Shown here in pieces: positions 47,555 through 64,000 of a DNA stretch of 64,000 nucleotides. Under the pieces are notes generated by a model, which was not told the DNA's origin, did not search any database, and saw only the letters and a program-made list of their open reading frames with translations. The position numbers and the translations under genes were made by a program. The stretch comes from an uncultured Prolixibacteraceae bacterium (GTDB lineage: Bacteria; Bacteroidota; Bacteroidia; Bacteroidales; FEN-979), in contig CAZGIM010000012.1 in NCBI GenBank assembly GCA_964525995.1, positions 3,636 to 67,635 of the forward strand, in the 5' to 3' direction. Position 1 is the stretch's first letter, and every line of letters starts with the position of its first letter.

Positions 47555-50500
47555 TCACTTTGTGGCGACAAGCAGTGGCCTGACAAAATGTTCCTGACTG
47601 GTCCGAATGGTAACGAAGTAGATTCCGGGTGATACTCCGGTGATATCGATCTGAATGTCGCGTTTCGGAACGGATTGCCCAATGGTTTGTCGGTATACTG
47701 TGATTCCCCGGGCATCCCTGACTTCGATCTCACAGGTTTCATCAACCTGGCCGGCCAACGACACGGTGAAGATTCCACTTGTCGGAACCGGGTAGATCCG
47801 GATCCTTTGATCGGTTGGTTCATCCATTCCGGGCAAGGTTATGTAAATGTTGTTGGAGGTATCGGAGCTGCATCCGTTTATATTAACCACATCCCAATAC
47901 CAGCCGATAGCGGTGACGGTATAATTCTGCCCGGTGGCTCCCGGGATCAGTGATCCGTTGAAAAACCACTGGTTTCCGTCGGTTGCATTGCTTGAAAGCA
48001 CCGGCCCGGATAGCGTGATCACGGGAGCAGGAGGTATCGGATTCAGGGATACGGCCAGCGTTGCAACAGGTCCGTCGCCGCAGCTGTTGCTTCCGTAAAC
48101 GGTAACATTTCCGGACGTTGCGGTGGGTCCGAAATCAACGGTGATGGCATTGGTGTTGGCCCCGTTGACGATGAAGGCACCGGCAGGTACGGTCCATTGG
48201 TAAGTTGTAACCTCCGGGATCGGGTTTATTGAATAGATGATCCCGGAAGCGTATTCGCACACCTGATCGGGACCTGCGATGGCTCCCGGATCGGAAGGCA
48301 ACGGGGTCACCGTAACCGCGAAGGAAGGTGATGCCGGTCCTGATCCACACAGGTTGTTGCCTTGTACCGTGATTACTCCGGAAGAAGCATTTCCGGCAAA
48401 GCTGACGGTAATCGCGTTGGTATTATAACCACCTGTGATGGTGGCTCCCACGGGAAGCGTCCAAACGTAGGAAATAGCGTTGGTGACGGGAGCTACCGAA
48501 AATACCACACCGGTTGTACCGCCGCAGACTGCTGCTGTTCCTGTGATGGTTCCTGCTGCCGATGGAAGGGGTTCAACGGTGACACTGAAGGTCGTCGGGG
48601 AGGCGGCCATACATCCGGCCGTACCGGTGTAGTTAACCGACACCCACTGTGACCCGGAGGTATTCCATGCAACCTGTATTTGGTTAGTCCCTGTCCCAAT
48701 TACGATGGAGCCGCCCGACGACACACTCCAGGTATAGGAGGTCATTCCCGACTCGGTGGTATACGTGGCATTCGCACCGCCCTGGCATGCCGAAGTGGTT
48801 CCCGAAATTGTCGGAACCGGCGGAGGACCCACAGTGACCGGCAGTGTGGAAGGGGCGCCAGTGGAACAGAAATTTGTTCCGTAAACCGCAACATTACCGC
48901 TTGAGGTACCGAAATTTACCACGATGCTGGTGGTATTCTGTCCGCTCACAATGGTAGCGCCAGCAGGAACAGACCATGTATAGCCGGTGGCGTTTGTGAT
49001 TGGCGCTACAGTATAGGTCTTTCCTGTAGCTCCGTTACAAACGTTCGCGGAACCCGTAATCGGTCCGGCGGCAGCTATGGTCGGGCAGCCGGGTGTAAAG
49101 GTCTTATCGGCCCCGTAAAAAGTACCGGCTGTGCTTACTCCGACACAGCGGTAGTGATAGGTAATATTGGAAGTGAGTCCGGAAAGGTTGGCTGTGACGG
49201 CAACGGGCGAGTACCCGGTCACTGTGGGTGGGTTTGCAGCCAGGGAATTGCCGTAACTCGTATTCAGGCCCCAGTCGAAGGTTACCGTGGTCGGATAGAG
49301 GTTGGCGGTTACCGATCCGTTGAGGGTGGCGCTGGTCAGTAAGATATTGGAGGCGGCATTGGTCACCACGACGGGATTCACGATGATCTGTCCACTGATG
49401 GTGATCATCAGGGAATCCTTTACGGTTAAATCCTGCACCGAAACCGCTTTGGCATATACGGTTCCGTTACCGGTGGCAGTTACCAGTCCGGCCGTGCTGA
49501 TCGTGGCATTACCTGTTCCGGAAACCAGACTCCAGGTCACATTCTGATTGGCTGAAGCCGGGAATACGGTTGCGACCACCTGCAACGTACCTCCGCTTGT
49601 GGTGATCGTGGGAGGCGCGCCTCCCTGGGTGGTGACCACCAGACCGATCAGTCCTCCGACTGATATACCCTGGGCATAACCCATGTATGAGCCGGTGCGG
49701 TTTTCGGTCCAGATGCCTGCGCAACGGTTAGGGCCGTCGGGGGTGAAACCGAACCGCATCTTGGGAGTTCCCGGAGGAGCTGAGGTTGAACTAAGTTCCA
49801 CCTGATTACCGGTCCAGACAAAATTTCCGTTGGCATCGAGCCGGGTTGCATAGATTTTATCGTTGGCGTCGTAAAACAAAAACATCGGGTTATCGCTGAC
49901 CAGTGCAACCTTACCTGCATGTTGATAACTGTTCGGGCCAATGGCATAAACCACCTTGGCATTGTCGGTAAACTGCCGGGCTCCGGTCGTTTTCAGGTAT
50001 TTCTGTACATAAACTCCGTACTGGGTCTGGTTATAATCGCTGAAGTTACATACCGACCAAACGTAATTGGAGGTGGCCGACAAATTGATCGATGTAAAAC
50101 CCTGATAATCGTCGTAAGTATTCACATTCGTGTTGAAGGCCGAACCGTTCATTCCCCAGGGGATGGTACCTCCCGGTTCGATTCGTTGGAGGAAGGAGTT
50201 GAATCTGAAACCGTTTGAGCTGTAATATCCGACGTAGGTAACATCGCCATCGGCGGCGATAGAATAATAACGGGCTGCGCTGGTAGTCTGATTGCAGATC
50301 TGAAGCGGGGCATAGACGGCGGTTCCGTTCGGATTGAACATTTGCGCATAGAGTGTGGTCGACACGCCGTAACCCATCTTCTGATACACCATGGTAAATT
50401 TACCTGCCAGGTTACCGATCAACTGACCGCGGGTGGTGGTGGATGTACCTACTGTGACTACAACAGGGGCGGTCCATGCCAGTGATCCGCTGTTGGTTAT

Positions 50501-51031
50501 CTTTTGGATGTTCAGGGTGTTTCCGTTATCGGAATTCCAGGTAACAACAATCTCGCCTGTTGAAAGCAAGGCGGGATAGGGAACCATACCGCTGCCGAGG
50601 ATGATACCTCCCGCGCCCCAGAGTTGCGCTCCGGTTTGGGAGATTTTATGAACTACGGCGTTCATGATTCCGGTTCCTTCATGTTGAAATCCGATGACCA
50701 GGTTGTTGGAGGCGTCGACACAGACATTAAAAACAAAAGTCGCCGATCCCGATGCCAGGTTGCTCACCAGTACGCCATCGGCTCCAAGGAGCTTATAGCC
50801 GTCGGCATCAATGAGTTGGGCCCGCATGTCGTAATTGCCGGAATTCTCGTGGTAATATGCGATCCATGTCTTTCCGTCGGATGTGGGAACCGACTGCAAA
50901 TCGGCGGTTGGCAATCCCGAAATCAGCATGTTCACATTGGTATTGGTATTCCACTGAGCTGACGCCAGGCCTGAACAGAGCAACATCAGGAGTCCTGCAA
51001 GACTCCATAAAAATGTCAATTTTGTTTTCAT
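47555..51031 (-). CDS. T9SS-secreted protein: unassigned ~480-aa N-terminal region, Big_2-like Ig domain, FN3-like domain, PKD-like domains including one G1/G2-type A-module, GNQWF module, type-A T9SS CTD
   Basis: Preferred start MKTKLTFLWSLAGLLMLLCSGLASAQ (51031). A-module: GTTSACQGGANATYTTESGMTSYTWSVSSGGSIVIGTGTNQIQVAWNTSGSQWVSVNYTGTAGC. PKD-like GY.W.VP.GA.I repeats. C-terminus IRIYPVPTSGIFTVSL...LLVATK. Confidence 0.75.
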   Translation of the reverse strand: MKTKLTFLWSLAGLLMLLCSGLASAQWNTNTNVNMLISGLPTADLQSVPTSDGKTWIAYYHENSGNYDMRAQLIDADGYKLLGADGVLVSNLASGSATFVFNVCVDASNNLVIGFQHEGTGIMNAVVHKISQTGAQLWGAGGIILGSGMVPYPALLSTGEIVVTWNSDNGNTLNIQKITNSGSLAWTAPVVVTVGTSTTTRGQLIGNLAGKFTMVYQKMGYGVSTTLYAQMFNPNGTAVYAPLQICNQTTSAARYYSIAADGDVTYVGYYSSNGFRFNSFLQRIEPGGTIPWGMNGSAFNTNVNTYDDYQGFTSINLSATSNYVWSVCNFSDYNQTQYGVYVQKYLKTTGARQFTDNAKVVYAIGPNSYQHAGKVALVSDNPMFLFYDANDKIYATRLDANGNFVWTGNQVELSSTSAPPGTPKMRFGFTPDGPNRCAGIWTENRTGSYMGYAQGISVGGLIGLVVTTQGGAPPTITTSGGTLQVVATVFPASANQNVTWSLVSGTGNATISTAGLVTATGNGTVYAKAVSVQDLTVKDSLMITISGQIIVNPVVVTNAASNILLTSATLNGSVTANLYPTTVTFDWGLNTSYGNSLAANPPTVTGYSPVAVTANLSGLTSNITYHYRCVGVSTAGTFYGADKTFTPGCPTIAAAGPITGSANVCNGATGKTYTVAPITNATGYTWSVPAGATIVSGQNTTSIVVNFGTSSGNVAVYGTNFCSTGAPSTLPVTVGPPPVPTISGTTSACQGGANATYTTESGMTSYTWSVSSGGSIVIGTGTNQIQVAWNTSGSQWVSVNYTGTAGCMAASPTTFSVTVEPLPSAAGTITGTAAVCGGTTGVVFSVAPVTNAISYVWTLPVGATITGGYNTNAITVSFAGNASSGVITVQGNNLCGSGPASPSFAVTVTPLPSDPGAIAGPDQVCEYASGIIYSINPIPEVTTYQWTVPAGAFIVNGANTNAITVDFGPTATSGNVTVYGSNSCGDGPVATLAVSLNPIPPAPVITLSGPVLSSNATDGNQWFFNGSLIPGATGQNYTVTAIGWYWDVVNINGCSSDTSNNIYITLPGMDEPTDQRIRIYPVPTSGIFTVSLAGQVDETCEIEVRDARGITVYRQTIGQSVPKRDIQIDITGVSPGIYFVTIRTSQEHFVRPLLVATK

Positions 51032-51095
51032 TGTTTTGGGTTTTGGGATTACAAAATATTTACCGGCCCCGTCACACGTCAGCAAATCCTCCGGG

Positions 51096-52349
51096 TCAAC
51101 GGGTCGTGGTTTCTATATGTTCAGTCAGCTTTCCCAGGCACCGTACATAGCTTCCGAATTCGTTGTCGTACCATCCGAAGATCTTGGCATGGGTTACCGG
51201 AAGGTTAACGTCACGGTCTTCTTTAATTCCCAGGGAGTGAAGCAATGCGGCAGGCAACGGAAGAAATCCGGTCCGGGTATGGGTTTCGTGTCCTTCGATG
51301 ACCACTGCGGCGGGAAATCCCATCAGGTCAGACGATACATTCTGTTTTTCGCTGAAGTGAAGCAATCCCTGCTGGGATCCCCGGGTAGCACGGCGGTATA
51401 GGTCGTTGATGTATGCGCCACTGATTATCGGTTCACCGCGCTCATCCACCCGCGAATCGAAGGTAATATTGAGGGAAATCAGGGAAACGGTATTGGTCGG
51501 GATGCGCACCGAATCGGCCATGAATCCGATGTTTGCTATTTGCGGCAGCACCATTTCCAGCGCTTTTCCCGCTCCTGTGGAAGATAAAATGATGTTGTTG
51601 AATACCGACCTGTTTTTCCTCAGATCGGAAGTTCCGGTTGAGGGAACCGCATCTAGCACACTCTGGGTGTTGGTTGCAGCATGAACCGTCGACATGGATG
51701 CGGTGAGGATTCGCTTGGTTTCTACGTCTTCGAGCAGGGGTTTCATCATATGGGCCAGCCCTGTGGTGGTACAGCTTGCCGCTGAAACCACATGGTGCAG
51801 GTGCGGCCGGAAGTCGAGGTGGTTAATGCCATAAATCAGGGTTGGATATTCGCCGGAATCCTTGTAGGATTTATCTTTGATCTTAAACGGGGCGCTGGCG
51901 ATCACATTTCGCGCGCCGGCTTCGAGGTGGCCCCGGAGGCTTCCTTTTGGATCATCGGCCGGAATGGTCGGATCCAGAAATTTTCCCGTGCAATCGACTA
52001 CCGTTTGAACGCCTTCGCGGGCCCATCCGATATTGCGGGGCAACCGTTCTTTTCTTAAAATTTTTACCGGGAATCCATCCACATCCAGCATACCATCAGA
52101 GGCATCAATCACTGTAATCGGGCATTTCTTTCCGGAAAATCCGTGAAGGAAATGATCGAGTGTGCCATAGGTTGAGTCCGTACTGATGGTATGAATCACA
52201 TCATCGAGGCTTTTACCGACTTCCCGGCCTACGTTGATCACGATACCTTCGAAGCAGCGCGACTGCAGATGGTACCATAATGTCAGTTTTCCGATGCGAC
52301 CCAAACCGTTGATGCCCAACAGTTTTTTCTCTTTTAGTGAAATTTCCAT
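51096..52349 (-). CDS. Divergent long-form glyceraldehyde-3-phosphate dehydrogenase paralog (417 aa)
   Basis: Rossmann motif GINGLGRIGKL, catalytic-Cys context SAASCTTTG, TVHAATNTQ, C-terminal FGWYDNEFGY. Several insertions relative to the 334-aa form. Confidence 0.75.
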   Translation of the reverse strand: MEISLKEKKLLGINGLGRIGKLTLWYHLQSRCFEGIVINVGREVGKSLDDVIHTISTDSTYGTLDHFLHGFSGKKCPITVIDASDGMLDVDGFPVKILRKERLPRNIGWAREGVQTVVDCTGKFLDPTIPADDPKGSLRGHLEAGARNVIASAPFKIKDKSYKDSGEYPTLIYGINHLDFRPHLHHVVSAASCTTTGLAHMMKPLLEDVETKRILTASMSTVHAATNTQSVLDAVPSTGTSDLRKNRSVFNNIILSSTGAGKALEMVLPQIANIGFMADSVRIPTNTVSLISLNITFDSRVDERGEPIISGAYINDLYRRATRGSQQGLLHFSEKQNVSSDLMGFPAAVVIEGHETHTRTGFLPLPAALLHSLGIKEDRDVNLPVTHAKIFGWYDNEFGSYVRCLGKLTEHIETTTR

Positions 52350-52372
52350 GATATCGATTGTTTTGGTTAGGT

Positions 52373-55300
52373 TCAGAATTCCTGTTTCCGGATCGGATAA
52401 TTACCCTGGTAAATGATGCCAAGCGGCCCGTCCAGCGCGATTTTGTCGAATGCCCTGAACACGGTATCGTTGATGTGGCATGTCTTTTCTTTTTCGTTCA
52501 CCCTGAGTTCCGTGCAATTGACCACGCAAACTTTACCCAGGCTTGAGGCGGTAACCGCGGCATGAGAGGTGGCCCCGCCTTTGCCGGTAAGTAGTCCGTC
52601 GCATTCAAAGATCATCTCGATATCGTCGGGAACCGTGTCGGGACGGGCAAGGATGCATTGACCATCTTCAAATTTAGCTTTTATTGCCCGGATATCTTCC
52701 AGGTCAAAAGCAAGAAATCCATTCACGACCCGGTTGCCGATCCCGATACCGGTGCCAACCTGTTTCATTTTTTGAGGCGGAACGGCGAACACCACTTTTT
52801 GCTCGGGTTTTTTCACCGACTGATCCCTCACTTGTAAAATGTACAGATCCTCGGGCTTTGCGGTCTCAAAGGTGAACTCGATCTCCTGATGGCCGAAATC
52901 GTGTTTTTCGAGCAGTTCGTGGGCAAAGTTATTCAGTTTCTCAAAGATCTTCGGAAAGGCGCTTTCAAGAGAGAATGGGCTTTTCTGGTAGTATTTATTC
53001 CGCTGGGCTTCACTTACGGGAAGGGTATTAACCAGTCCTGCAACGATATCTTCACCCTGGCTCAGAAAAGAAAAATCGCCGTTCAGATGGATCCCGGGTG
53101 AATTTTGCATCACATCGCAGGTAAATACCACGCCCGATCCCGATTCGCGGTGAATATTTCCGAAAACCATCTGCTGCACGATCACGGCAGTCCCCCACTC
53201 GTGGGCGATCTGAAGGTGGTTGCGGTACACCTTTGCCCGCGTGTTGTCCCATGAATTGAATACCGCGATGATCGCCTGCCTTGCCTGTAACCAGGGATCC
53301 TGCTCGAAGGGAACGTTTCTTTCCTTCAGTACATCCTTGTATGCGTAAGTGATCTCGCGCATGATGGGCGGCGGAAAGTCGATCTTGCGGCTGATGTCGT
53401 ACTTTTGCTTGTAATCGATCATGATCTGATCAAATACATCCCGGTCAATTCCGAACGACATACCCCAGGTCTGAAGCAATCGCCGGTAACAATCCCACGA
53501 GGTCCAGCCAAAGTTATGCTGTTGGCTGAGAACCTCCGTGATCTCATCATTAAGCCCTACATTCAGAAAGGTATTCATGGCTCCGGGCATAGAGATGGCT
53601 GATCCCGACCGTACCGACAACAAGAGCGGGTTCAGCGGGTTGGCGTACTCCCGGTGCGACAGGATCTCTATTTCCCGTATATACCTGTCGATCATGTTAT
53701 CGACTTCGGCATGCAGCGAGGGATGTTTGGTGATGGAATCCTTCCGGCGAAAGACCTCGGTAGTAATGATAAAACCGGGAGGTACGGAATAGCCCTGAAG
53801 ATAGAGTTTCTTCAGGAAAAAGCCCTTTGACCCCAGGAAAATCTGGCTGTCGATTCGCGGATCGGCTATGTTGAAAGGGCTGATTACCACATCGGGATCG
53901 TACGACATGATGCTGCGTATATCCTCCGGCGTAAAATGATCAGCCATGTTACGCAGGCTGTTGAGCACTTTGCCAATGAAGTTGTCGAGCGATTGAATGA
54001 GGAAGGCAGATGAGAGCAGATCGCGGAAGAATGCTTCCGATTTTTTATGGATGAATTTGCTTACCGATTTCTGGTCCAGATTTGTTTCATCGGGAAAGAT
54101 TTGCGGGATGATCACCTTCAGAAGTTCATCGTACGAACTCATGAAGTAGTGGCTGATGATCTCTTTCACGCTTTCGCCCATGAACTGGAATATGTTGAGA
54201 TACTGACCGATTGTGAAACTGCCCGAGGTCAGGCTGTACTGCAGCATCTGAAGGTTTGAATTGAAGCCCTGATCGGGAATCCCGTCGAGTTCCAGCCCCT
54301 GGCGCAATAATTCGAGGGTCGAATAGATGCTTTTGAGAGTTTTCGCGGTAATATAATCGGTGTTGAGCTTGGCAATGATGCGTTCCATCAGTACGGTGGC
54401 GATGCCTTCGAGGCGAAAGGTCACCCCGAGTGCTTCGAATTTTTTTTCGTGGTATTCGCCGTACATCGATGGGATCCCGAATGCGATATGCCGCTTGTGG
54501 TAGATGTTTTCCCATCCCTGACTGGGCACCGGGTCGAAGATGATCTGGTTGAGCCGGTCCATGAAGCGGAAAATCAGGCGGAGCGCCTGCTCATCGTCCG
54601 ACTGATCGAGGTATCGGGTCAGATCGTCCACTTCGGCAGGGCTGAAAAAATTGTACCGGTTGAGGATCGCCGCTATGTTGATAGTCTCGAAGGAGTACTT
54701 TTCTTTCAGCAGCTTGTAAAGCCTGATCAGGAGGCGGACCCTCCGGATGTCCTGGTCTTTTGCGCTGCCCAGTTCGTTGAGCATCGTCTCAACCGCTTCG
54801 GATTCAAGTTCCGAAAGTTGTTTTACCGAGAGGTTGCCTTTTTCACACAGGGCGCTTACAATCTCATGAACTCCCTGCACCCACTCGCCTGACAGATCGA
54901 TACTCTCGATCACATCGGCCGGCACCAATGGTTTCAAAAGATCGAGGTTCGGATCTTTCCAGAAGTTAAGGATCTCCAGGCATATCAGAATGTGCGAATT
55001 ATTGCCTTCGGTATGGATCTGTTTTCGCAGGAAATGGATCAGCTTGTCGGCCCGCTGGGATATTTCATCCAGCGTGGTGGTCACCTCGCGGAGTTCACCT
55101 TCGGCTCCGATCTCGTTAAAATAAACCGGGAAAATCCGTGTGAGCTGTTTGATCCTTTTAAAGATAGGCGCAATGTCGGAGTTGAGCAACCGGGTCACAT
55201 CGCGCTGGAACAGATCGGTATCGAAGATAAAGATTCCGCCCATCCTCAGGTTGATGATAAGCGCCGACAGCAGTCTTTTCATTACCTCGGGGGAATACTC

Positions 55301-56470
55301 GATCAGTTCGAGCCATACACGGATATTCTTGATGTGGTTGCGGTCGACATGAAGCTGCCAGTTGTCGGTAAGGTACACCACGCCCGGAGTAACGAATCCC
55401 ATCCTGATGAGCTTGTTCTCAAAATAGCGGATCAGGGAAAGGTTGTCGCTGTTCATGATCTCTTTACCCAGGGTCAATACCGAATCGAGTACGGTACCTA
55501 CGTGGTGCTGTCGAAATTCTTCAAAGAGCTGAAAAAGGTTGTCGATTGATACGAGTATCTGATCTTCCGTAAGTTCCTTACCGATATCGCGAATCACACG
55601 GTTCAGGTCCCAGAGCAGGTAATCCCGTTGATGCACCATTCCCGGGAGGTGAAGAAGGAAAAACAGATAGTGAAGTTTTTCGATTGCTTTTTCAAAATTC
55701 CCTGTAAATTTCCTGAATGCCGTGGCGATATCGGTGTAGGTAAGCGAAACCTTCACTACTTCATTCCAATTTCCGGCATCAGCAAGCTTTTGTCGCTGAA
55801 CATCGAAAAAAGGTTTTCCCAATTGCAGGATTTGATTGGAGTACTGATCACCGAATATTTTCTGCTTTGATCCGTACCATGCTTCTATTTTTGTGGAAGA
55901 CTCCCAGAAATCGAGATTTTTTATAGCGATTTCACGGACCATTGTCAGGATTCGGGACGAAACCGCAGGATCTTCAGAAAGTTTATCAAGGCTTGTAAAG
56001 AAAATTCCCAGGTTGGCAATGCAACTTTCCGTGCTGGCGCCGATGTTTTCTTCTAACACACTGATTGCGTGTTCGATCGTCTGTTTGAAGAGGATGGGGT
56101 CAGTCGAAAGGTTTTCGATCAGTTTCAGGAGTGTGTAAACCAGTTGTTCCTTGAGCCGTGGCTCCAATTCTTCCCGGAGCAGGGTGGAAATGATATTGCA
56201 TTCCGCATCAAGCGCTCTGACCGCTTCGGGAAGCGCCCGGTAGAACCATAAGTCGCCAATGAAAATTGCCGGAATTTGTCCTACGACATCAGCGTGATTG
56301 GAATAGGGATGATGGAACTCGTTGAAAAAATCTTCTGAGCGCTTATGAATTCCATAGTAATTGTCAGAAAGGCTGATAAACCATTGATGCTCCTCTGGTA
56401 TGTCGATTATCAAATCCCTGGTATGTGCCAGGTTTATTTCCAGTGCGGTCGATTGTAATCCGGGGTTCAT
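52373..56470 (-). CDS. 1365-aa PPDK/PEP-synthase-like dikinase: unassigned ~865-aa N-terminal region + PPDK_N ATP-grasp domain + PEP-utilizer phosphohistidine domain; no PEP/pyruvate-binding domain
   Basis: Motifs [119 protein letters not shown]. The protein ends 62 aa after the His. Confidence 0.8.
   Translation of the reverse strand: [1365 protein letters not shown]
52376..53860 (-). other. PPDK-like nucleotide-binding plus swivelling phosphohistidine domain region of the 1365-aa protein
   Basis: See motifs above. The predicted catalytic His codon (CAT on the minus strand) is at 52562..52564, within GGATSHAAV. Confidence 0.75.
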
Positions 56471-56485
56471 GGTCGTTTAGTTTGA

Positions 56486-57490
56486 TTACAGGGTCGCGAT
56501 ATGCTTTAAAAGGTCGATGATCCGGTTGGAGTAACCGCTTTCGTTGTCGTACCAGGCCAGCACCTGAACGAAATCGCCGCCGAGGACTTTAACGCTCAGG
56601 GCATCGAAAATGGCCGAATGCGGATTGTTGATGATATCGCTTGAAACGATGGGATCGCTACAATATTCCAGGTATCCTTTAAGCTGCATCCGGGCCTGAT
56701 TTAAAAAGGCTTCACGGATCATGGGAGCGGTTACAGGATTGTTCAAAAGGGCAGTCAGTTCGACGAAGGAACCGTCGGGCACGGGAACACGTGTCGCGAA
56801 GCCGTCGAACACGTTGGTCATCTCAGGCATGACCAATGCTACCGAGCGTACCGCGCTTGTCGTGGTAGGAATAAGGTTCACCGCTGCGGCCCGGGCACGC
56901 CGGAAATCATCATGCGGCCCGTCGAGGGTTGATTGGTTGTTGGTATAGGGATGTACGGTATTCATGAAAGCCTTTTTCACGCCAAAGGAGTCATGCAGGA
57001 CCTTGAGCATCAGCGCAACGCAGTTGGTTGTGCACGATGTATTCGAAATGATCCGGTCGGTGGGAAGGAGCTGGTGGTGGTTGATCCCCATGACAACGGT
57101 ACGGTCGATCAGCTCGTCGCCGGGGGGACAGGAAAGGATCACGTTGCGGACACTTCCCCTGAAATGCTGTTCAAGTTCCTGACGGGTTTTAAAGAGGCCG
57201 CTCGATTCCACGATCACCTCTGCCCCGGAGATATCCCAGGGAATGGCCGATGGATGCATGCCCGAGGTGACGGGGATTTTCCTGCCATCGACCAGTAAAA
57301 ATCCCCGGCCCGGTTCAATCGTTCCCAAAATCCTGCCATGAACACTGTCATATTTTATAAGATGCGCCAACAGCGGCACATCCATCGCATCGTTGAGGTG
57401 AACAATTTCAATCTCCGGTGTTGCAGCGGCAAGTCTGAAAACCAGCCTCCCGATCCTTCCCAGTCCGTTTATTCCTATTCTGATAGCCAT
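56486..57490 (-). CDS. gap: Type I glyceraldehyde-3-phosphate dehydrogenase
   Basis: 334 aa: GINGLGRIGRLVFR, SNTSCTTNCVALMLKVL, TVHPYTNNQ, LAWYDNESGYSNRIIDL. Confidence 0.9.
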   Translation of the reverse strand: MAIRIGINGLGRIGRLVFRLAAATPEIEIVHLNDAMDVPLLAHLIKYDSVHGRILGTIEPGRGFLLVDGRKIPVTSGMHPSAIPWDISGAEVIVESSGLFKTRQELEQHFRGSVRNVILSCPPGDELIDRTVVMGINHHQLLPTDRIISNTSCTTNCVALMLKVLHDSFGVKKAFMNTVHPYTNNQSTLDGPHDDFRRARAAAVNLIPTTTSAVRSVALVMPEMTNVFDGFATRVPVPDGSFVELTALLNNPVTAPMIREAFLNQARMQLKGYLEYCSDPIVSSDIINNPHSAIFDALSVKVLGGDFVQVLAWYDNESGYSNRIIDLLKHIATL

Positions 57491-57566
57491 ATTGAGTTCA
57501 GTAAGCGTATTTTAATCTAAAAGAAAAACCACTTCCGGCGCCTGATTGGTTGGGGACCGGTTGTTA

Positions 57567-57598
57567 CAAATTTAACGCTTTTTCCGATTGGATTTCAA
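57567..57598 (-). promoter_or_regulatory. Candidate Bacteroidetes-type promoter (-33 TTG / -7 TAnnTTTG) for the gap operon
   Basis: Minus strand reads CCTTGAAATCCAATCGGAAAAAGCGTTAAATTTG. TAAATTTG matches TAnnTTTG and TTG lies 21 nt upstream. The motif ends 76 nt upstream of the ATG at 57490. Motif match only. Confidence 0.3.
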
Positions 57599-57668
57599 GG
57601 AAAAAAGATCCTTACTCCGGCAGTGGAAAATTAAAAAAACGGAAACAACTCGACTGACCGGGGATTGA

Positions 57669-59978
57669 TCATTGAACGGGCAGGGAAAAACTGAAAGCGC
57701 TTCCACTTCCGGCTTCGCTTTCGGCCCAAATCTTTCCGTCGTGTTTATCGATAAATTCCTTGCAAAGAATCAGTCCGAGGCCGGTTCCTTTTTCCTTCGC
57801 GGTTCCATAGGTAGAATAACTTTCATCGATTCGGAAAAGTTTTCCCAGTGATGCCTGGTCGATTCCCACACCCGTATCCCGGATTGTAACGATAACGTCA
57901 GCCGGTGTTTGCTCAGCAGTTATGGTGACGGCGCCTCCCGGTTTCGTAAATTTGATGGCATTGGAAATCAGGTTGCGCACCACGGTGCTGATCATAGGTC
58001 TATCCGCACTGACGATGTATTTCCGGGAAATGTTATTCACGATGGTTATCGATTTCTGGTGCGCCGAATCCTCCAGCAGTGAAGCCACATCACCAATCAG
58101 CCGCGTTAAATCCAGGTACTCCGGATTGAATTCCATTTTGCCAGTCTGGGATCGGGACCACTCGAGGAGGTTGGTCAGCAGATCAAGGATACGGTTCGAT
58201 GATTCGTGGATGATACCCGCGTACCTGCCCACCTCCTGGTAATCTTTCTCTTCGATTCGTTCCTTTATAACATCACTGAAACCGATGATGGCATTGAAGG
58301 GATTCTTGAGGTCGTGGGCGATAATCGAGAGAAATTTATCCTTCATCATATTGAGTTCCCTGTAACGGGTTTCGCTGAGGCTGAGGGCTTCCAGGGTTTG
58401 ACGTTGCCGGGTGACATCCCTCGAAAAAACGCCCACCTTGTCGGTGGTCTCATTTTGGTAATGGATCGGGTAAATCACATATTCGTTGTATATTCCATCT
58501 CGTACATCCTCTCCGTGGATTATCTTTCCGGTATCCAGCGACTGATGGATAAGGGTTAAACGCTTTTCGGCAATTGCGGCCGGTAAGAAATCAAAGAGAT
58601 TCTTCCCCAGCATTTCTTCCCGGGTCATGTGCATCCGGCGGGCATGGGCCTCATTGGTATCGAGGACAGTTCCTTCCCGGTTGAGCAGGATTATAAAATC
58701 GTCGGTCGATTCCATGATGGCCCGGGCATTGGTCTCGCTTTCCCTGAGTTTTCGTAGTATGATTTTCTTATCAGTGATGTTTCGGATAATCGCTACAATC
58801 TCGTTCTCAGAATAGGGCACCATGCGGCATTCAAACTGTTCGATCTCCTTACCGGGAATGGGAAGTTCATATTCATAAATCTGGATGGATTTGCCCTTCA
58901 GGGTTTCCCGGATCTTTCCCATGGTCAGTTCTGCAAACCATGCCGGCATGACTTCCGAAATGCTGTGTCCGATAAACATTTCCGGTTTCAGGTAAAGATC
59001 CTCGGAAGCCGCTTTATAACTCAGGAAAACGCCGTCGGCATTCACCTGAAATATCATGTCGGGGATCGCCGCTATCAGCGCCCTGGCATGCTGTTCACTT
59101 TCGCGAAGCGCCTCTTCTGTTTTCTTTCGCGCCGAAATATCCCTGATCAGCGCCAAAATGTACGCTGTGTCGCCCAGTTCTATTTTTCCGGCGCTGACTT
59201 CGACCGGATAAAGGGTTCCATCTTTATGTCGGTGAACAACTTCCAGCGTTTCATGTTTGATTTTTTCCAGCACCTCCTCGACGGATCGATCCTTCATTCG
59301 TTCCCGGGCTCCGGGCTCCAGGTCGCGGAATGACATTTTCAGGAGTTCTTCGGCTGAATATCCGGTACGGGTGACAGCAGCCTGATTGACTTCGATGATA
59401 TCGCCTTTCATGTCGTGGAGGAAGATCATCTCGACCGCCTGATCCATTATAGCTCGGTACTTCATCTCCGATAACTGCAACGCTTCATCCTTGCGTTTCT
59501 GTTCGGTAATATCGATGATATTTCCCGAAACTCTTGCAACCGATCCGCTCTCAAAAACCGGGCGACCGATGGTCCGGATCCAGATATGGCGTCCCGTCGT
59601 TGTAATGAAGGGGAATTCCAGGTCGTATGGAATCCCCTGTTCACAGCACTTTTTGAATGCGGTCAGGATTGTTTCCCGGTCGGAGGGCAGGTAACATTGG
59701 AGACTCGCCTCAATGAGTTCTTTTCCCTGCACCGTGTAAGTATCAGGGTCAAAGTCATGGATCCGGTAGGTTTCGGGAGTCCAAATCAACAACTCCGTGT
59801 TGATATTCCACTCCCATCCTCCTATTTTGGCCAGTTGCTGGGTCGTTTGCAAAAGTTCATACATCCGTTCAAGCGCCTCCTCACAGAATTTATGTTCAGC
59901 GGATATTTGACCGGAGTTTCCCGTTTCGATCACCTCCTTCGACGGATGTTGTCTCTTTTTTGGCTCGCTCATATCCAA
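57669..59978 (-). CDS. Multi-PAS cytoplasmic sensor histidine kinase
   Basis: 769 aa with no obvious TM segments. About four PAS/PAC modules. FLSIIAHDLKNPFNAIIGF H-box. NLISNAIKFT, GTGLGL. Confidence 0.85.
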   Translation of the reverse strand: MDMSEPKKRQHPSKEVIETGNSGQISAEHKFCEEALERMYELLQTTQQLAKIGGWEWNINTELLIWTPETYRIHDFDPDTYTVQGKELIEASLQCYLPSDRETILTAFKKCCEQGIPYDLEFPFITTTGRHIWIRTIGRPVFESGSVARVSGNIIDITEQKRKDEALQLSEMKYRAIMDQAVEMIFLHDMKGDIIEVNQAAVTRTGYSAEELLKMSFRDLEPGARERMKDRSVEEVLEKIKHETLEVVHRHKDGTLYPVEVSAGKIELGDTAYILALIRDISARKKTEEALRESEQHARALIAAIPDMIFQVNADGVFLSYKAASEDLYLKPEMFIGHSISEVMPAWFAELTMGKIRETLKGKSIQIYEYELPIPGKEIEQFECRMVPYSENEIVAIIRNITDKKIILRKLRESETNARAIMESTDDFIILLNREGTVLDTNEAHARRMHMTREEMLGKNLFDFLPAAIAEKRLTLIHQSLDTGKIIHGEDVRDGIYNEYVIYPIHYQNETTDKVGVFSRDVTRQRQTLEALSLSETRYRELNMMKDKFLSIIAHDLKNPFNAIIGFSDVIKERIEEKDYQEVGRYAGIIHESSNRILDLLTNLLEWSRSQTGKMEFNPEYLDLTRLIGDVASLLEDSAHQKSITIVNNISRKYIVSADRPMISTVVRNLISNAIKFTKPGGAVTITAEQTPADVIVTIRDTGVGIDQASLGKLFRIDESYSTYGTAKEKGTGLGLILCKEFIDKHDGKIWAESEAGSGSAFSFSLPVQ

Positions 59979-59983
59979 ATTTG

Positions 59984-62437
59984 TTAGGTACCTGACGGGA
60001 GGGTAAACCTGAAGGTGCTTCCCTTTCCCTCTTCACTTTCGACGCGGATCTCCCCGCCCTGTTTAACAACGAATTCCTTACATAATATCAAGCCCAAACC
60101 GGTTCCTTTCTCCTTGTCGGTGCCGGGTGTGCTGATTTTATTATCAATGGAGAAAATCTGAGATCGTCTCTCGGCTGGGATCCCGATTCCGGTATCGCGG
60201 ATGGCAACCTCCACCATTTCGTTTTGTCTGGATGCTTTAACAAAAATGCTTCCGCCCCGCGGGGTAAACTTTATGGCGTTGGATACCAGGTTCCGCACGA
60301 TGGTATCAACCATATTTTGATCCGCAACCACCCGGAGGCCGTCGGGAATCTCCACCGTGATGGCAATATCTTTTCGCGTCGCCTGTCCTTCGACAACAGG
60401 GAGCGTCTCCATCAACTGCTCCTTCAAATTCATCACCGCGGGCTGAAAGGTGATCCTGCTGGTCTGTAAATTGGCCCAGATGAGCAGGTTTTCAAGCAAT
60501 GCATAGGCTTGCTTCGATGAGGAGGCAATTTTCATCAGCAATGTGGTAACCTGATGCTGGTCCATCGTCCCGAATTCCTGAATCAGGAAGTCGGTAAATC
60601 CGAAAATGGAGTTGAACGGACTCTTCAGGTCGTGGGCAATGATCGAGAAGAACTTATCGCGTGTGGCAACCAGTTCGCGGAGTTCCTCGGCATTCTTTTT
60701 CATTTCGAACTCCATTTTCTTCCGATTGTCGATATTCCTGCTGACACCCAGTACTTCAATTTCACCGGTGGCATTGAATTGTATTTGTGTGGCAACTTCA
60801 ACCCAGATGACCGAACCATCTTTACAGGATTGCCTGACTTCGTTCAACTGACGGGTCAGGTTCGTATCCCGGTGTTTGAGAAATTCCGGGATGCCAATCT
60901 CAAGTCCGCGCCTGACCAGCTCCAGCGATTCCGGTTCCAGTGATTCATCCATCGACTGGGCCATCGCCTCTTCCGGGGTATAGCCGCGGAGGTGGATGAT
61001 CGAGGGGCTGATATAGGTAAACCGTTCGCGCGACAGGTTTAAGATCCAGATCACATCGGCCGTATTTTCAGTGATCAGCCGGTATTTTTCTTCGCTTCTC
61101 CGAAGTTGTTCTTCCGATTTCAGCCGTTCGGTGATATCAAAAAAGGTGACCACGGCGCCTGTGATCTTACCCTCATGAACAATGGGATACGACCAGTATT
61201 CGGCCGGGAAGCTGCTTCCGTCGGCCCGCCAGAGAACCTCATCGGTAACATGCGTTCCGACCCCTACCTGAAATGCTTTAAAAATCTCGCATGCATCGAC
61301 CGGAAACGGGGTGCCGTCCTTTCTTGTATGGTGGATAAGACGGTGCATATTTTTCCCGATGACATCGTGATAGTTCGGATAGCCCAATATCTTTCCCGCG
61401 GAATTATTGCAGAAGGTACAATTTCCATCTCTGTCGATGCCATATATCCCTTCGGCTGCGGAATTAAGCAATTGAAGGAACTTCTCCTGGCTCTCCTTCA
61501 GATCGAGTTCCGCCTTCTTATGGTCGGTGGTTTCAAGGGTCAGCAGAAAGATCCCCTCGGGAACCGGTTCGACGTGTACTTCAAACCAGGCGATGGAACC
61601 ATCAGGAAAAGCATAGGAGGATTCAATGCGACCGGGAGTGCGCTCCTCCATACATTTTTTATAGACTATAAAGAAGGAGGTATCTTCGATTCCGGGGAAC
61701 AGATCCTGAATTTTTCTACCAGTCATCTCTTCCTTGTTCATCCTCGCCTGGAGCGCATTTGCATCATTCAAATACAAAAAGGTCCAATCATATCCGACCA
61801 GGACACACCCTTCCAGCATCGTGTCGAGCGTTGAACGGAAGCGTTCTTCTGACAACCGCAATTGTTCATGACTGATCCTGAGTTGTTCGTGTGTATCTTT
61901 GAGTTTTGAGAAGCTGTTTATTTCATTATGCAGGATCAGCGCAACGTAATTGAAGAAAAGGTTTAACAGCTTTTGAACTTCAGAAACCGAAATCACGATA
62001 TTCTCAATTTTGAAGACCCCGATGATCTCCTTGGCGGCCAGCAACGGAAAGATCCAGGTGATGGCATTTTTCAGCCCCGGTGTGGTCATGTGGGTTTTAC
62101 TGATATCATCCTTTGATTCGACCGGTTCGCGGGTTTCCATGACCTTTCGCACGTCGGGGTCATCGATTTCGGCTAACCGTAATCGTTTCCCGAAAACGTC
62201 GGCGTAAAAGTATTCCTGGTCGAGGGTATAATAAATGGTCACGTTGGAGCCGCCGATGTTATTCATTACGGTCAAAAGAATGTTATCGATGGTGTTTTCG
62301 AGCCCTGTACCCGAACTGATCCGGGTCACGAGGTCGGCGATCAACTGGAGGTACGATTTCTCGAGGGCAAGTTTTTCAACGCGTTTCCTCAGATTATCGA
62401 GTTCTTCTCTTTCGATTGTAACCATTTCCGTGTTCAT
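59984..62437 (-). CDS. GAF/PAS sensor histidine kinase
   Basis: 817 aa. N-terminal coiled coil plus a GAF-like region, three PAS modules. FFSIIAHDLKSPFNSIFGF H-box. NLVSNAIKFT, GTGLGL. 5 bp upstream of the next kinase gene. Confidence 0.85.
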   Translation of the reverse strand: MNTEMVTIEREELDNLRKRVEKLALEKSYLQLIADLVTRISSGTGLENTIDNILLTVMNNIGGSNVTIYYTLDQEYFYADVFGKRLRLAEIDDPDVRKVMETREPVESKDDISKTHMTTPGLKNAITWIFPLLAAKEIIGVFKIENIVISVSEVQKLLNLFFNYVALILHNEINSFSKLKDTHEQLRISHEQLRLSEERFRSTLDTMLEGCVLVGYDWTFLYLNDANALQARMNKEEMTGRKIQDLFPGIEDTSFFIVYKKCMEERTPGRIESSYAFPDGSIAWFEVHVEPVPEGIFLLTLETTDHKKAELDLKESQEKFLQLLNSAAEGIYGIDRDGNCTFCNNSAGKILGYPNYHDVIGKNMHRLIHHTRKDGTPFPVDACEIFKAFQVGVGTHVTDEVLWRADGSSFPAEYWSYPIVHEGKITGAVVTFFDITERLKSEEQLRRSEEKYRLITENTADVIWILNLSRERFTYISPSIIHLRGYTPEEAMAQSMDESLEPESLELVRRGLEIGIPEFLKHRDTNLTRQLNEVRQSCKDGSVIWVEVATQIQFNATGEIEVLGVSRNIDNRKKMEFEMKKNAEELRELVATRDKFFSIIAHDLKSPFNSIFGFTDFLIQEFGTMDQHQVTTLLMKIASSSKQAYALLENLLIWANLQTSRITFQPAVMNLKEQLMETLPVVEGQATRKDIAITVEIPDGLRVVADQNMVDTIVRNLVSNAIKFTPRGGSIFVKASRQNEMVEVAIRDTGIGIPAERRSQIFSIDNKISTPGTDKEKGTGLGLILCKEFVVKQGGEIRVESEEGKGSTFRFTLPSGT

Positions 62438-63039
62438 CGGTTCCCGAGCTTTAAAAAAATGGTTTGTTTTAAAATCGATTCAAGGTGATCCAATGAAACA
62501 TCCCTCCATCGGAGCGGTAATCCGACAGTTTCCGCCGCGTGCTGTGCCCCGGATTCAAAATTCCCGGAGCAGGGTGTTCGCAGCGCGAGAAGGTAGGTAC
62601 GGTCGCCTCTGAAAATCTCTTTTATCACCCCGGGGTTGGAGCCGAAAGTTTTTTCGAGGATCTCATCCCAGCGGCGCGCCCAGTCTTCAAGTAAAAAGTA
62701 AGCTCCTTTTGAAAGTTCTTCGTTAAAAAGGGTTTTTCCTAAAAGCATTTCGGCGCAATTCTGTCCCTGCGACCGGATAGTTTTTGAATTCTCCAGAATC
62801 CGTTCCATCAGGGGGTGGCAGGCGCCGTAAAAGACGATCGTTTCGCGGGTTTTATATTTGCTGAGGGCGGCATTCAGAGATCCTGACAGTTTTTCAAAAT
62901 CGATATGGAGGAATGAGTTCAGGAAGTGGGATTCGACCGGCCAGTTGTTTTTCCGGATCAGGAAGGCGATCTCTTTTTTCAGGATCCCGCAACTGATCAG
63001 AACCAGTTTATCGTTTTGGGTCGTGTTTTCAGGTTTCAT
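62434..63039 (-). CDS. DUF1638-like protein (family usually linked to corrinoid-dependent methyltransferase systems)
   Basis: 201 aa. LVLISCGILKKEIAFL and YGACHPLM segments resemble DUF1638. 4-bp overlaps with both neighbours. Assignment from memory of the family pattern only. Confidence 0.5.
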   Translation of the reverse strand: MKPENTTQNDKLVLISCGILKKEIAFLIRKNNWPVESHFLNSFLHIDFEKLSGSLNAALSKYKTRETIVFYGACHPLMERILENSKTIRSQGQNCAEMLLGKTLFNEELSKGAYFLLEDWARRWDEILEKTFGSNPGVIKEIFRGDRTYLLALRTPCSGNFESGAQHAAETVGLPLRWRDVSLDHLESILKQTIFLKLGNR

Positions 63040-64000
63040 TGACCGCCTGTTTCATAAACTTCTTCGAGCATGGTTCTGATATTCTCTTCTGGGATGGCCA
63101 GGGGCATGACCAGCGTTCCGAACAGAAACTTCCCGCCCGGCATACCGGCCGCGAGCATCCGTTTGACCTCCGTTCTGATCTCCTCCTTCGACCAATCGAT
63201 CAGTTTAATATCGTTGATCACACCGCAGGTCAATGCCCGGCCGTTGATGATTTTTTTGCCTTCGGCAAGGTCATCGAGCGGACTGAGGTAAAAGGTCTTT
63301 ATTCCCAATTCTTCAATCACCTGGTCGATCACGGGATTCATCCTGGCTCCGCCGCAATAATAGACCACGCCGCTGATCCCTCCGGGTTCCAGGTCTTTCT
63401 TCATCCAGTACAGCGACCGTTCGCGAAACAGGTTCATGGGAATGAAATCGGTCGATCCGAACGCGTTGGCATAGACCAGAATATCGGCGCCGGCAACCCG
63501 GTAGGCTTCAATTTCTTTCCGGAAAAAATCGGAGCATTTGGTCAGTAACTCATCGCGTACTGCGGTTGGGCCGAAGAGGAACAGTTCCATCCATTTTTCC
63601 ATCCCGATCAGCATGGCCGGGAGGGTCATGGAAGCTGTAACATAGGCACAGATCGGATACCTGCCGCCCACTTCTTCCCTGAGAATTTTAAGACATTTCA
63701 AGGGTTCCTGAAAAGCCGGATGACCGGTCAGATCGTCGGGAACCTGCAATTTATGAATATCATCGTAGTTTTTCAAGATCATTTCGCCCACGTTGGGAGA
63801 TCCCTCGGCAGCATAGATGATCTTCCGGCATCCCAGCATTTCTGCTTCCTTTCCCACGTAGAAGAGGCTCCAGACGTTATCATACCCGTACTTTTCGCGC
63901 ATTCTGAGCTGGGCTTCCGCGACATATTCACCTTTCGAAAAATATTGTTTCAACGGCATTCCAAGTTCTTTCGCTCCCTGGTCGATGAGGTTGCAGAATA
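63036..64000 (-). CDS. Uroporphyrinogen decarboxylase (URO-D) family protein, MtaA/CmuA-type methyltransferase-like; 5' end lies outside the window
   Basis: The reading frame stays open upstream of the Met at 63959 to the window edge (..FCNLIDQGAKELGMPLKQYF). The overall pattern is URO-D-family-like (ICAYVTASMTLPAMLIGMEKWM, ILVYANAFGSTDFI, PGGKFLFGT). Confidence 0.6.
   Translation of the reverse strand, partial: FCNLIDQGAKELGMPLKQYFSKGEYVAEAQLRMREKYGYDNVWSLFYVGKEAEMLGCRKIIYAAEGSPNVGEMILKNYDDIHKLQVPDDLTGHPAFQEPLKCLKILREEVGGRYPICAYVTASMTLPAMLIGMEKWMELFLFGPTAVRDELLTKCSDFFRKEIEAYRVAGADILVYANAFGSTDFIPMNLFRERSLYWMKKDLEPGGISGVVYYCGGARMNPVIDQVIEELGIKTFYLSPLDDLAEGKKIINGRALTCGVINDIKLIDWSKEEIRTEVKRMLAAGMPGGKFLFGTLVMPLAIPEENIRTMLEEVYETGGQ

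Follow-up and report, generated by a model that had tools for sequence, protein, structure and literature searches.

The 64,000-nucleotide stretch of DNA analyzed here (hereafter the window), which derives from an uncultured Prolixibacteraceae bacterium, contains three adjoining genes of the minus strand that we name gap1, dk and gap2. The outer two encode forms of glyceraldehyde-3-phosphate dehydrogenase (GAPDH), while dk encodes a large dikinase in which the catalytic half of pyruvate, phosphate dikinase (PPDK) follows a long N-terminal domain of a new kind. The dk protein has no TIM barrel, the catalytic residues of all three proteins are intact, and dk and GAPDH genes are found paired reciprocally across phyla, a pairing that points to a step of lower glycolysis or gluconeogenesis not described before. 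The reading we favor, with a probability of roughly one in three (0.35), is that dk would be a PPDK-style dikinase interconverting 3-phosphoglycerate (3-PG) and 1,3-bisphosphoglycerate (1,3-BPG), using ATP plus inorganic phosphate (Pi) on one side and AMP plus pyrophosphate (PPi) on the other, in a reaction coupled to GAPDH. We also put forward, tentatively, that the dk-GAPDH module may constitute a previously unknown enzyme of this part of metabolism, a 3-phosphoglycerate, phosphate dikinase endowed with a new type of acceptor domain and a dedicated GAPDH recipient.

The list of open reading frames (ORFs) places gap1 at 56486..57490, dk at 52373..56470 and gap2 at 51096..52349, all on the minus strand and separated by gaps of 15 bp and 23 bp, the same coordinates that had been reported in the first-pass annotation of this DNA. 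Their products are a near-canonical type I phosphorylating GAPDH of the NAD type (334 amino acids, N-D motif kept), a PPDK-like dikinase of 1365 amino acids as deduced from the ORF list and its translation, and a divergent phosphorylating GAPDH of 417 amino acids, respectively. All sequence motifs but one that had been quoted for these proteins recur exactly in the translations (SCTTNC and WYDNE in gap1, SCTTTG and TVHAAT in gap2, GKGGATSHAAV in dk), whereas the one given as WYDNEFGY in gap2 actually reads WYDNEFGSY.

The association of dk with GAPDH was evaluated in the 80 best loci of a genome scan, 79 of them non-redundant, by running tblastn with gap1 and gap2 of the window against all loci and by all-against-all clustering of their ORFs. 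A GAPDH-family gene lies beside dk in 71 of the 79 loci, which are distributed over many phyla, so that the conservation of the gap-dikinase neighborhood in related genomes, the lack of which would have spoken against the first-pass annotation, is upheld; four of the sampled loci have no GAPDH, one of them being at a contig end. The clustering of all ORFs in these loci retrieved no third conserved partner such as pgk, tpi, a transporter or a regulator, the remaining neighbors of dk reflecting lineage-specific synteny. The arrangement of the partners varies: the order gap1-dk-gap2 seen in the window recurs in about 25 loci, dk-gap2 alone in about 35 (Geobacter, Desulfobacteraceae, Clostridia, Calditrichales and many Cloacimonadota and Bacteroidota) and gap1-dk alone in about 10, while about 10 further loci have a divergently oriented canonical gap beside dk that is 43-47% identical to gap1. 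Hence the sandwich of dk between two GAPDH genes, which had been described for this operon, holds as a conserved core of dk plus gap2, but the gap1 sandwich is confined to about a third of the sampled loci, belonging to Bacteroidales, Lentimicrobiaceae, Prolixibacteraceae, Ignavibacteria and Cloacimonadota.

The junctions between these genes are also overlapping or short in related loci, with the gap1 stop overlapping the dk start by 1-8 nt in 20 of 27 cases and spacers of mostly 12-60 nt between dk and gap2; the stop-start overlap suggests translational coupling. The pairing of dk with gap2 persists when the N-terminal identity of dk has fallen to 35% (locus L086) or 27% (L090), and the reverse look-up, starting from gap2-type proteins of different lineages, found dk immediately upstream in all three cases. 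Neither the best 120 homologues of gap2 nor the 150 representatives of the dk N-terminal domain include a fusion of dk with GAPDH. That housekeeping glycolytic genes happen by chance to adjoin an unrelated PEP-synthase-like gene, an idea for which the generic names in the databases alone would speak, is scarcely credible when the pairing occurs in so large a majority of loci, is reciprocal, survives down to 27% identity and frequently involves overlapping stop and start codons; the survey, the junctions and the reverse look-ups effectively refute it. Two variants of the neighborhood may be recorded. In the locus of strain NaphS2 (L081:11423-12967) gap2 and the end of dk share 7 nt, and 24 nt beyond gap2 lies a gene for a dynamin-family GTPase. 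In a lineage of Calditrichales type (L051:11604-12764 and L094:5823-6986), gap2 is followed by a gene resembling that of phosphoglycerate dehydrogenase (PGDH) and then by a gene for an MFS transporter; the PGDH-like proteins score 254-260 bits on TIGR01327, under its cutoff, and offer a weak hint that 3-PG might be the metabolic node of this module.

Regarding the enzyme itself, the C-terminal part of dk had been described as the ATP-grasp and swivelling phosphohistidine domains of PPDK deprived of the C-terminal TIM barrel, and Pfam, profile searches, alignment and a structural model all agree with that description. The Pfam pattern is the one expected, with PF01326 at 102.9 bits (residues 920-1148) and PF00391 at 50.9 bits (residues 1271-1329), and no match in dk to PF02896, the TIM barrel for phosphoenolpyruvate (PEP) and pyruvate, at E <= 0.1. 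The PPDK-type ATP-grasp domain, for nucleotide and Pi/PPi, occupies residues 871-1220 (52811..53860, minus strand) and is followed by a linker and the swivelling phosphohistidine domain (residues 1221-1365, 52376..52810, minus strand), directly after which the protein ends. The predicted catalytic histidine, His1303 of 1365 residues (codon 52562..52564, minus strand), was located by alignment with His455 of PPDK and, as noted earlier, precedes the stop by 62 residues. A profile of 20 dk homologues matches residues 17-341 of Clostridium symbiosum PPDK (1kbl) in the PDB with an E-value of 8e-94, and also the isolated phosphoryl-carrier domain of PPDK (2fm4). In the pairwise alignment, the residues of PPDK that we take to be catalytic, namely K22, R92, E323, Q335, R337 and His455, correspond to K882, R954, E1198, Q1213, R1215 and His1303 of dk; the SMPG loop (the M103 region of PPDK), QGED and LQVR are also retained, GGATSHAAV of dk aligns with GGMTSHAAV of PPDK, and His1303 is invariant among 50 dk homologues. 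The AlphaFold2 model of residues 170-1365 has a mean predicted local distance difference test (pLDDT) value of 88.8 and a predicted TM score (pTM) of 0.75, and its C-terminal ~540 residues superpose in Foldseek on 1kbl, presumably the conformer in which the His domain is seated on the ATP-grasp domain, with a root-mean-square deviation of 2.6 Å over 542 columns at 31% identity. Given that the catalytic residues of PPDK are kept and that this modelled half superposes on 1kbl, the first partial reaction, in which ATP and probably Pi/PPi take part in forming phosphohistidine, is very likely intact.

Comparison with the NCBIfam models refines this assignment. The best match of dk is the PPDK model TIGR01828 with 336.8 bits, whereas the models of PEP synthase give 66.4 bits (TIGR01418, cutoff 739.75) and 81.7 bits (NF005057, cutoff 598); since dk is thus closer to PPDK than to PEP synthase (337 vs 66-82 bits), chemistry involving Pi and PPi appears to be favored. 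All the dikinase scores are far under their respective cutoffs, including that of TIGR01828 (843.45), so dk falls outside the equivalog family of PPDK. It shares with PPDK (EC 2.7.9.1; C. symbiosum structures 1KBL and 1DIK) the ATP-grasp domain, the swivelling phosphohistidine domain and the catalytic residues, but differs in missing the TIM barrel, in having an unrelated helical N-terminal domain of 870 residues and in its link to GAPDH. From PEP synthase (pyruvate, water dikinase) it is set apart likewise by scores under the cutoffs and by the lack of a TIM barrel.

The N-terminal 870 residues of dk (53861..56470, minus strand), presumed to form the module that binds the acceptor or a partner, have no sequence match in Pfam, NCBIfam or the PDB. 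AlphaFold2 predicts the isolated domain to be all-helical (pLDDT 83), and in the longer model of residues 170-1365 the same part is all-alpha except for one hairpin. In Foldseek searches of the PDB these models retrieve generic alpha-solenoids of the HEAT/ARM type only, with TM scores of 0.07-0.25. The possibility of a PEP/pyruvate-binding fold hidden in the N-terminal region, which the first-pass annotation had considered damaging to its interpretation, can therefore be set aside: a TIM barrel in this position is ruled out by Pfam, by the PDB sequence comparison, by Foldseek and by the all-alpha models.

Conservation is distributed unevenly along the domain. The mean identity is 38% for residues 1-260, 65% for 261-545, 44% for 546-650 and 63% for 651-870, compared with 67% for the ATP-grasp domain and 62% for the His domain, so that the sub-regions 261-545 and 651-870 match the ATP-grasp domain in conservation. 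Across 50 sequences with identities down to about 33%, 52 N-terminal residues are at least 98% invariant, and about 28 of these are polar or charged. The most conserved core, residues 371-491 (54998..55360, minus strand), contains the invariant W371, H379, D417, D419, Q422, E457, R461, D468, D475, H479, R482, K483, H486 and E488. A second cluster is formed by the invariant motif WENIYHKRHIAFGIPSMYGEYH at residues 653-674 (54449..54514, minus strand; WENIYHKRHIAFGIPSMYGEY), in which K659, R660, H661, S668, Y670 and Y673 do not vary; predicted to be a beta-hairpin, it is disordered in the model of the isolated domain and becomes an ordered hairpin in that of residues 170-1365. Other near-invariant residues are K591, E812, R816 and D829. 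Many of the invariant residues are Arg, Lys or His, suited to a doubly anionic substrate; the pattern looks like that of an active site for an anionic and possibly metal-bound ligand rather than of a passive scaffold.

The two GAPDH proteins both contain Gp_dh_N and Gp_dh_C in Pfam. The first-pass annotation had called gap1 canonical, which is right insofar as the protein gives a full-length alignment with GAPDH of Aquifex (2ep7, E-value 1e-100), but its score of 355.3 bits on TIGR01534 marginally misses the cutoff of 367.2. It keeps the catalytic Cys (in SCTTN) and His, together with the N-D motif carrying the NAD-specifying Asp after strand beta-2, and shows an unusual TTTSAVRS where solved GAPDHs have STGAAKA and gap2 has SSTGAGKA. 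The divergence claimed for gap2 is confirmed by a clear miss of the same cutoff (289.2 bits) and by its length of 417 residues; among its best 120 homologues the gap2 family is compact, with 414-419 residues and at least 64% identity. Its four insertions are themselves highly conserved in sequence (for example IEGHETHTRTGFL...PVTHAK). The protein retains Cys193 (SCTTT) and His223 (TVHAAT), as well as T226, R244/R247, the STGA motif and R282, which we take to be the Ps and Pi phosphate sites; the motifs equivalent to T179, R195, T208-G209 and R231 are preserved, DLRKNR, SSTGAGKA and RIPT among them. As all the catalytic and phosphate-site residues that were checked are in place, gap2 is expected to be a genuine phosphorylating dehydrogenase, its substrate being a phosphorylated aldehyde or an acyl phosphate, and both proteins should make or use 1,3-BPG, given the catalytic Cys and His of each and the phosphate sites of gap2.

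The cofactor site of gap2 is altered. The equivalent of the NAD-specifying Asp32 is replaced (N-V-G-R), and throughout the family V, T, I, Q or A stands at this position, with Gly-Arg after it. Cofactor engineering of GAPDH and the example of GapB link the loss of this Asp to the use of NADP, and Bacillus subtilis has a glycolytic GapA beside a gluconeogenic, NADP-dependent GapB. By analogy, the replacement of this residue in the whole family suggests that gap2 uses NADP(H) or has dual specificity, and the pair of gap1, of NAD type, and gap2, without the NAD-specifying Asp, resembles that of GapA and GapB.

The insertions and the low TIGR01534 score of gap2 (289 vs 367 bits), along with 107-114 bits on models of erythrose-4-phosphate dehydrogenase, are also what one would expect if gap2 acted on an aldehyde other than glyceraldehyde-3-phosphate (G3P) and dk phosphorylated some other small molecule that feeds or drains GAPDH-like enzymes, as in the conversions of glyceraldehyde to G3P or of glycerate to phosphoglycerate, or the interconversion of 4-phosphoerythronate and erythrose-4-phosphate. 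The rifampin-binding domain of rifampin phosphotransferase (RPH) is helical, like the N-terminal domain of dk. Substrates are diverse in this superfamily, comprising rifampin, glucans, phenol, hydroxyphenylethanones and prodigiosin precursors (PMC12167813), and dk resembles RPH, glucan water dikinase, phenylphosphate synthase, HpeHI and PigC/RedH in having an ATP-grasp domain, a His domain and an acceptor module other than a TIM barrel; matches to RPH, HpeI and PigC/RedH are obtained with dk in NCBIfam or Foldseek. The likeness to RPH is confined to the catalytic parts, since dk scores 30.9 bits on NF041857 (cutoff 999) and Foldseek aligns about 460 columns with TM scores of 0.16-0.22, covering the ATP-grasp and His parts only; the order of domains also differs, being ATP-grasp, acceptor and His in RPH and presumed acceptor, ATP-grasp and His in dk. 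Homology of the dk N-terminal domain with the rifampin-binding domain is not supported by Foldseek. We consider an acceptor outside the 3-PG couple unlikely, because gap2 keeps both sets of phosphate-site residues, the partners of gap1 type are GAPDHs close to the canonical form, the 79 loci show no conserved transporter or other pathway gene near dk, and a PPDK-like dikinase that is reversible and probably linked to PPi would best suit a high-energy product.

The 3-PG/1,3-BPG proposal takes the acyl phosphate 1,3-BPG as the compound that a GAPDH and a phosphohistidine enzyme would most simply have in common. The variety of partners (gap2 type only, gap1 type only, both, or a divergently transcribed canonical gap) also points to a common metabolite rather than to one fixed docking surface. 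From the conserved PPDK residues, we infer that the ATP-grasp site would use ATP and Pi to phosphorylate His1303, with the release of AMP and PPi. The His domain would then swing to a pocket in the N-terminal domain that is conserved and strongly charged, where the phosphohistidine would phosphorylate the carboxylate of 3-PG to yield 1,3-BPG, and the partner GAPDHs would reduce this labile acyl phosphate to G3P, gap2 probably with NADPH and gap1 with NADH; run in reverse, the system could make ATP from AMP and PPi. In this scheme, which acceptor is used, whether Pi and PPi take part, which way the flux runs and which cofactor gap2 prefers are deductions from the features described above. The dk enzyme would be to phosphoglycerate kinase (PGK) what PPDK is to pyruvate kinase, that is, its dikinase counterpart. 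It sits beside gap as pgk does in many bacterial gap-pgk operons and its proposed product is that of PGK; the two have no relation in sequence or fold, however, and the proposed stoichiometry is ATP + Pi <-> AMP + PPi instead of ATP <-> ADP.

Energetically, arithmetic with textbook standard values gives about +4 kJ/mol for 3-PG + ATP + Pi -> 1,3-BPG + AMP + PPi, compared with +19 for PGK in the same direction and +16 kJ/mol for PPDK; the reaction should therefore be reversible, and 15 kJ/mol better than that of PGK for gluconeogenesis, while hydrolysis of PPi would contribute about 19 kJ/mol more by the same values. Acetate, amino acids or fatty acids are the growth substrates of several host groups, which live at low energy charge. 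These growth substrates, along with a gap2 that is probably of NADPH type, favor a role of dk as a gluconeogenic bypass; a PPi-dependent, ATP-conserving role in glycolysis is equally allowed.

Several observations weigh against a 3-PG dikinase. The genomes with dk probably also carry pgk, which would make dk an accessory and not a replacement, and why a single operon should keep two GAPDH paralogues is accounted for only loosely. The AlphaFold2 model has the His domain docked on the ATP-grasp domain and is silent on the acceptor site. The N-terminal fold, as modelled, resembles alpha-solenoids, which as a rule bind proteins, and it was not recognised as any known fold for binding small molecules. 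The outermost branch of the dk family (1457-1540 residues; loci L087, L088 and L089) does not lie beside GAPDH genes and is found near GGDEF, sensor, sensor-kinase or unknown genes, one of its members carrying a fused N-terminal hemerythrin domain; this branch may be a functionally distinct and possibly regulatory subfamily. Finally, VadK (Rv1127c) of Mycobacterium tuberculosis, a PPDK derivative without the TIM barrel, is itself a proposed regulator: experiments have shown that it autophosphorylates on the catalytic His in an ATP- and Mg-dependent manner, and it is proposed to regulate methylcitrate-cycle enzymes, in particular methylcitrate synthase, by binding to them (PMC13400623).

VadK is the closest characterised relative of dk and the only relevant precedent that we found. 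The second NCBIfam match of dk is NF004531, a model of about 534 residues named 'pyruvate, phosphate dikinase' (246.2 bits, cutoff 456), which we presume from its length to represent proteins of the VadK type. VadK and dk have both lost the PEP/pyruvate domain of PPDK and kept the ATP-grasp and His domains, and VadK is functionally tied to specific enzymes of central metabolism (PMC13400623). From its conserved residues, dk is predicted to autophosphorylate on its His as VadK does. It differs from dk in being a protein of about 50 kDa with two domains only, in its actinobacterial origin and in its link to the methylcitrate cycle rather than to GAPDH; dk does not classify as a VadK-type protein, given its score on NF004531 (246.2 vs 456 bits) and its extra conserved domain of 870 residues compared with a two-domain protein of about 490-534 residues. 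The first-pass annotation had named a characterised homologue with an unrelated function as an outcome that would refute it; among characterised proteins we found no such orthologue of dk, VadK having neither the N-terminal domain nor a connection with GAPDH.

Following this precedent, dk might be a regulatory or protein-directed dikinase that autophosphorylates on His1303 and binds GAPDH with its solenoid-like domain, either passing the phosphate to GAPDH, as Enzyme I does to HPr, or binding GAPDH in a phosphorylation-dependent way that alters its activity or assembly, a mode of action proposed for VadK and methylcitrate synthase. Enzyme I of the phosphotransferase system (PTS) indeed belongs to the same phosphohistidine swivel superfamily and docks its protein acceptor HPr via a helical subdomain; unlike dk, it takes phosphate from PEP via a TIM barrel and has no ATP-grasp domain, and dk has no PTS-related Pfam match. 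The exclusive resemblance of the N-terminal fold to HEAT/ARM-type solenoids, the rank of NF004531 among the matches, the high conservation of the gap2 insertions, as in a dedicated interface, and the GGDEF, sensor and hemerythrin associations of distant relatives all agree with such a function. It does not sit well with the strong and uniform conservation of dk (47-57% identity between phyla over 1365 residues, at near-constant length), which is the pattern of a core metabolic enzyme, nor with the varying type of GAPDH partner, which is contrary to one co-evolved docking surface. Moreover, the approximately 28 invariant polar or charged N-terminal residues exceed what a simple interface needs, and translational coupling would suggest subunits in fixed ratio instead of a catalytic regulator. 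We regard direct action of dk on GAPDH as possible, if doubtful, and as the main rival of the 3-PG reading.

The distribution of dk was surveyed at the level of proteins and genomes. An exhaustive phmmer search of 1.84 billion representatives with the N-terminal domain yielded 466 clusters, in which nearly all full-length representatives have 1335-1540 residues; six of six distant relatives that were checked have PPDK_N and PEP-utilizers domains in their C-terminal half, and the N-terminal domain is unknown as a stand-alone protein. A word-indexed protein search with dk gave 1671 matches at E <= 1e-5, of which the best 120 are all about 1365 residues long and 51-99% identical. The genome scan, conducted with one genome per GTDB species, confirmed 576 of the 600 pattern matches listed, so that the family is present in at least 576 species-level genomes, nearly all from uncultured organisms, and its members are 47-57% identical between phyla over their full length. 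The best 80 loci are labelled Bacteroidales, Lentimicrobiaceae, Prolixibacteraceae, Marinilabiliales, Ignavibacteria, Cloacimonadota, Calditrichales, Aminicenantes, Clostridia/Oscillospiraceae, Geobacter, Desulfobacteraceae and Dehalococcoidia, the loci of Desulfobacteraceae type including the cultured delta proteobacterium NaphS2; other protein sources add Delongbacteria, Marinimicrobia, Tenuifilaceae and Acidobacteria. The databases give these proteins generic names such as 'PEP/pyruvate-binding domain-containing protein' or 'pyruvate, orthophosphate dikinase'. One contig among the GTDB representatives, with 99% identity to the window (L006, SACF01000004.1), is labelled 'Alphaproteobacteria bacterium', probably a binning or taxonomy error, since the window holds cargo genes for the type IX secretion system of Bacteroidota type and another contig with 99% identity (L007) is labelled Bacteroidales.

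The lineages that bear dk are mostly anaerobic, and the catalytic Cys of GAPDH is a classic target of oxidation. These facts, with the hemerythrin fusion of one distant relative, would fit a repair function in which dk reactivates GAPDH at the expense of ATP in oxygen-sensitive anaerobes, for example by phosphorylating the over-oxidised catalytic Cys in a sulfiredoxin-like manner. Such a reaction is speculative and has no precedent in the dikinase superfamily; it also leaves unaccounted for why a dedicated, divergent and probably NADP-type GAPDH should be paired with dk, and we judge it very improbable.

As to the expression of the operon, the intergenic region 5' of gap1 measures 178 bp, beyond which lies a PAS histidine-kinase gene. 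It contains a candidate -7 promoter box of Bacteroidota type, TAAATTTG, at 57567..57574 on the minus strand, 77 nt 5' of the gap1 ATG, which agrees with what we take to be the Bacteroidota -7 consensus; the motif TANNTTTG is not enriched in the window (37 found vs 30.8 expected), so that the TAAATTTG box is a candidate only. A scan of sigma-70 type finds a promoter-like site at 57598..57569, and the counts of terminator-like and promoter-like sites in the window equal the expectation from shuffled sequence. Within the operon the minus strand has a single weak terminator-like match, which lies inside dk at 53455..53440 and has a stem of 5 pairs. The overlapping or short junctions and the absence of a strong terminator-like site on this strand are consistent with, but do not prove, cotranscription of gap1, dk and gap2. 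No riboswitch or leader RNA was matched in Rfam at E <= 1 across 50900..57800. The anti-phage defence models of PADLOC gave zero matches for the three proteins, and the reading of them as a defence system was rejected.

Directly downstream of gap2 is a gene for a big secreted protein rich in repeats (47555..51085, minus strand). The TTG start listed for it is probably wrong, an ATG at 51031..51029 (MKTKLTF..., resembling a signal peptide) leaving a gap of about 64 nt after gap2, and its product resembles the type IX secretion cargo proteins of the window. As a whole the window is Bacteroidota-like, with the Por_Secre_tail sorting domain in three of its proteins. Such cargo is encoded by a pair of giant neighboring ORFs of 3283 and 3729 amino acids (10952..20803 and 20880..32069, both minus strand), each with Por_Secre_tail and with 26 and 18 PKD_6 repeats, respectively, the second also having the Fibrobacter domain 'Fib_succ_major'. 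The density of sensor kinases in the window is unusual: three multi-PAS histidine kinases are encoded at 44893..47436, 57669..59978 and 59984..62437, and besides these the window encodes a Reg_prop/Y_Y_Y kinase (2188..5256) and a hybrid histidine kinase that contains receiver domains (42849..44408). Two of the PAS kinases adjoin the gap1-dk-gap2 operon immediately upstream. Elsewhere, the genes for a DUF1638 protein and a member of the URO-D family share 4 nt (62434..63959, minus strand), a pairing known from corrinoid methyltransferase systems. A protein of 480 amino acids made of four AMPK1_CBM/CBM48 glycogen-binding modules is encoded at 8476..9918 (minus strand), its gene overlapping by 4 nt that of a retropepsin-like aspartyl protease (9915..10928, minus strand).

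To our knowledge, the steps from triose phosphate to 3-PG are treated as invariant, relying on GAPDH and PGK and barring the archaeal bypasses by GAPN and GAPOR. A search of the full-text literature found neither an account of a PPDK-like protein that has GAPDH as its partner nor one of a 'phosphoglycerate dikinase', and a 2025 review of glycolysis, in the passages found, mentions dikinases solely as PPDK and PEP synthase. What appears to be new is the combination, in a dikinase of the PPDK superfamily, of a new acceptor domain and a partnership with GAPDH that holds in both directions, the phosphotransfer core being known.

The dk proteins constitute a large and well-conserved family, hard-wired to GAPDH genes, that hides under generic database labels in phyla which dominate anoxic sediments, digesters, the rumen and the gut, and for their presumed acceptor domain we could find neither a Pfam model nor a structural relative. 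If dk acted on GAPDH as a regulatory dikinase, the idea put forward with VadK, that of a PPDK turned regulator, would reach a central glycolytic enzyme in many phyla. If instead dk is the dikinase counterpart of PGK, a new reaction would be added to central carbon metabolism and the bookkeeping of ATP and PPi in metabolic models would change. Energy-limited anaerobes would then have at their disposal either a bypass of PGK for gluconeogenesis, strongly driven, or a further step that conserves ATP and is linked to PPi, and in the latter, glycolytic case this would be the third PPi-dependent reaction of glycolysis, after those of PPi-PFK and PPDK.

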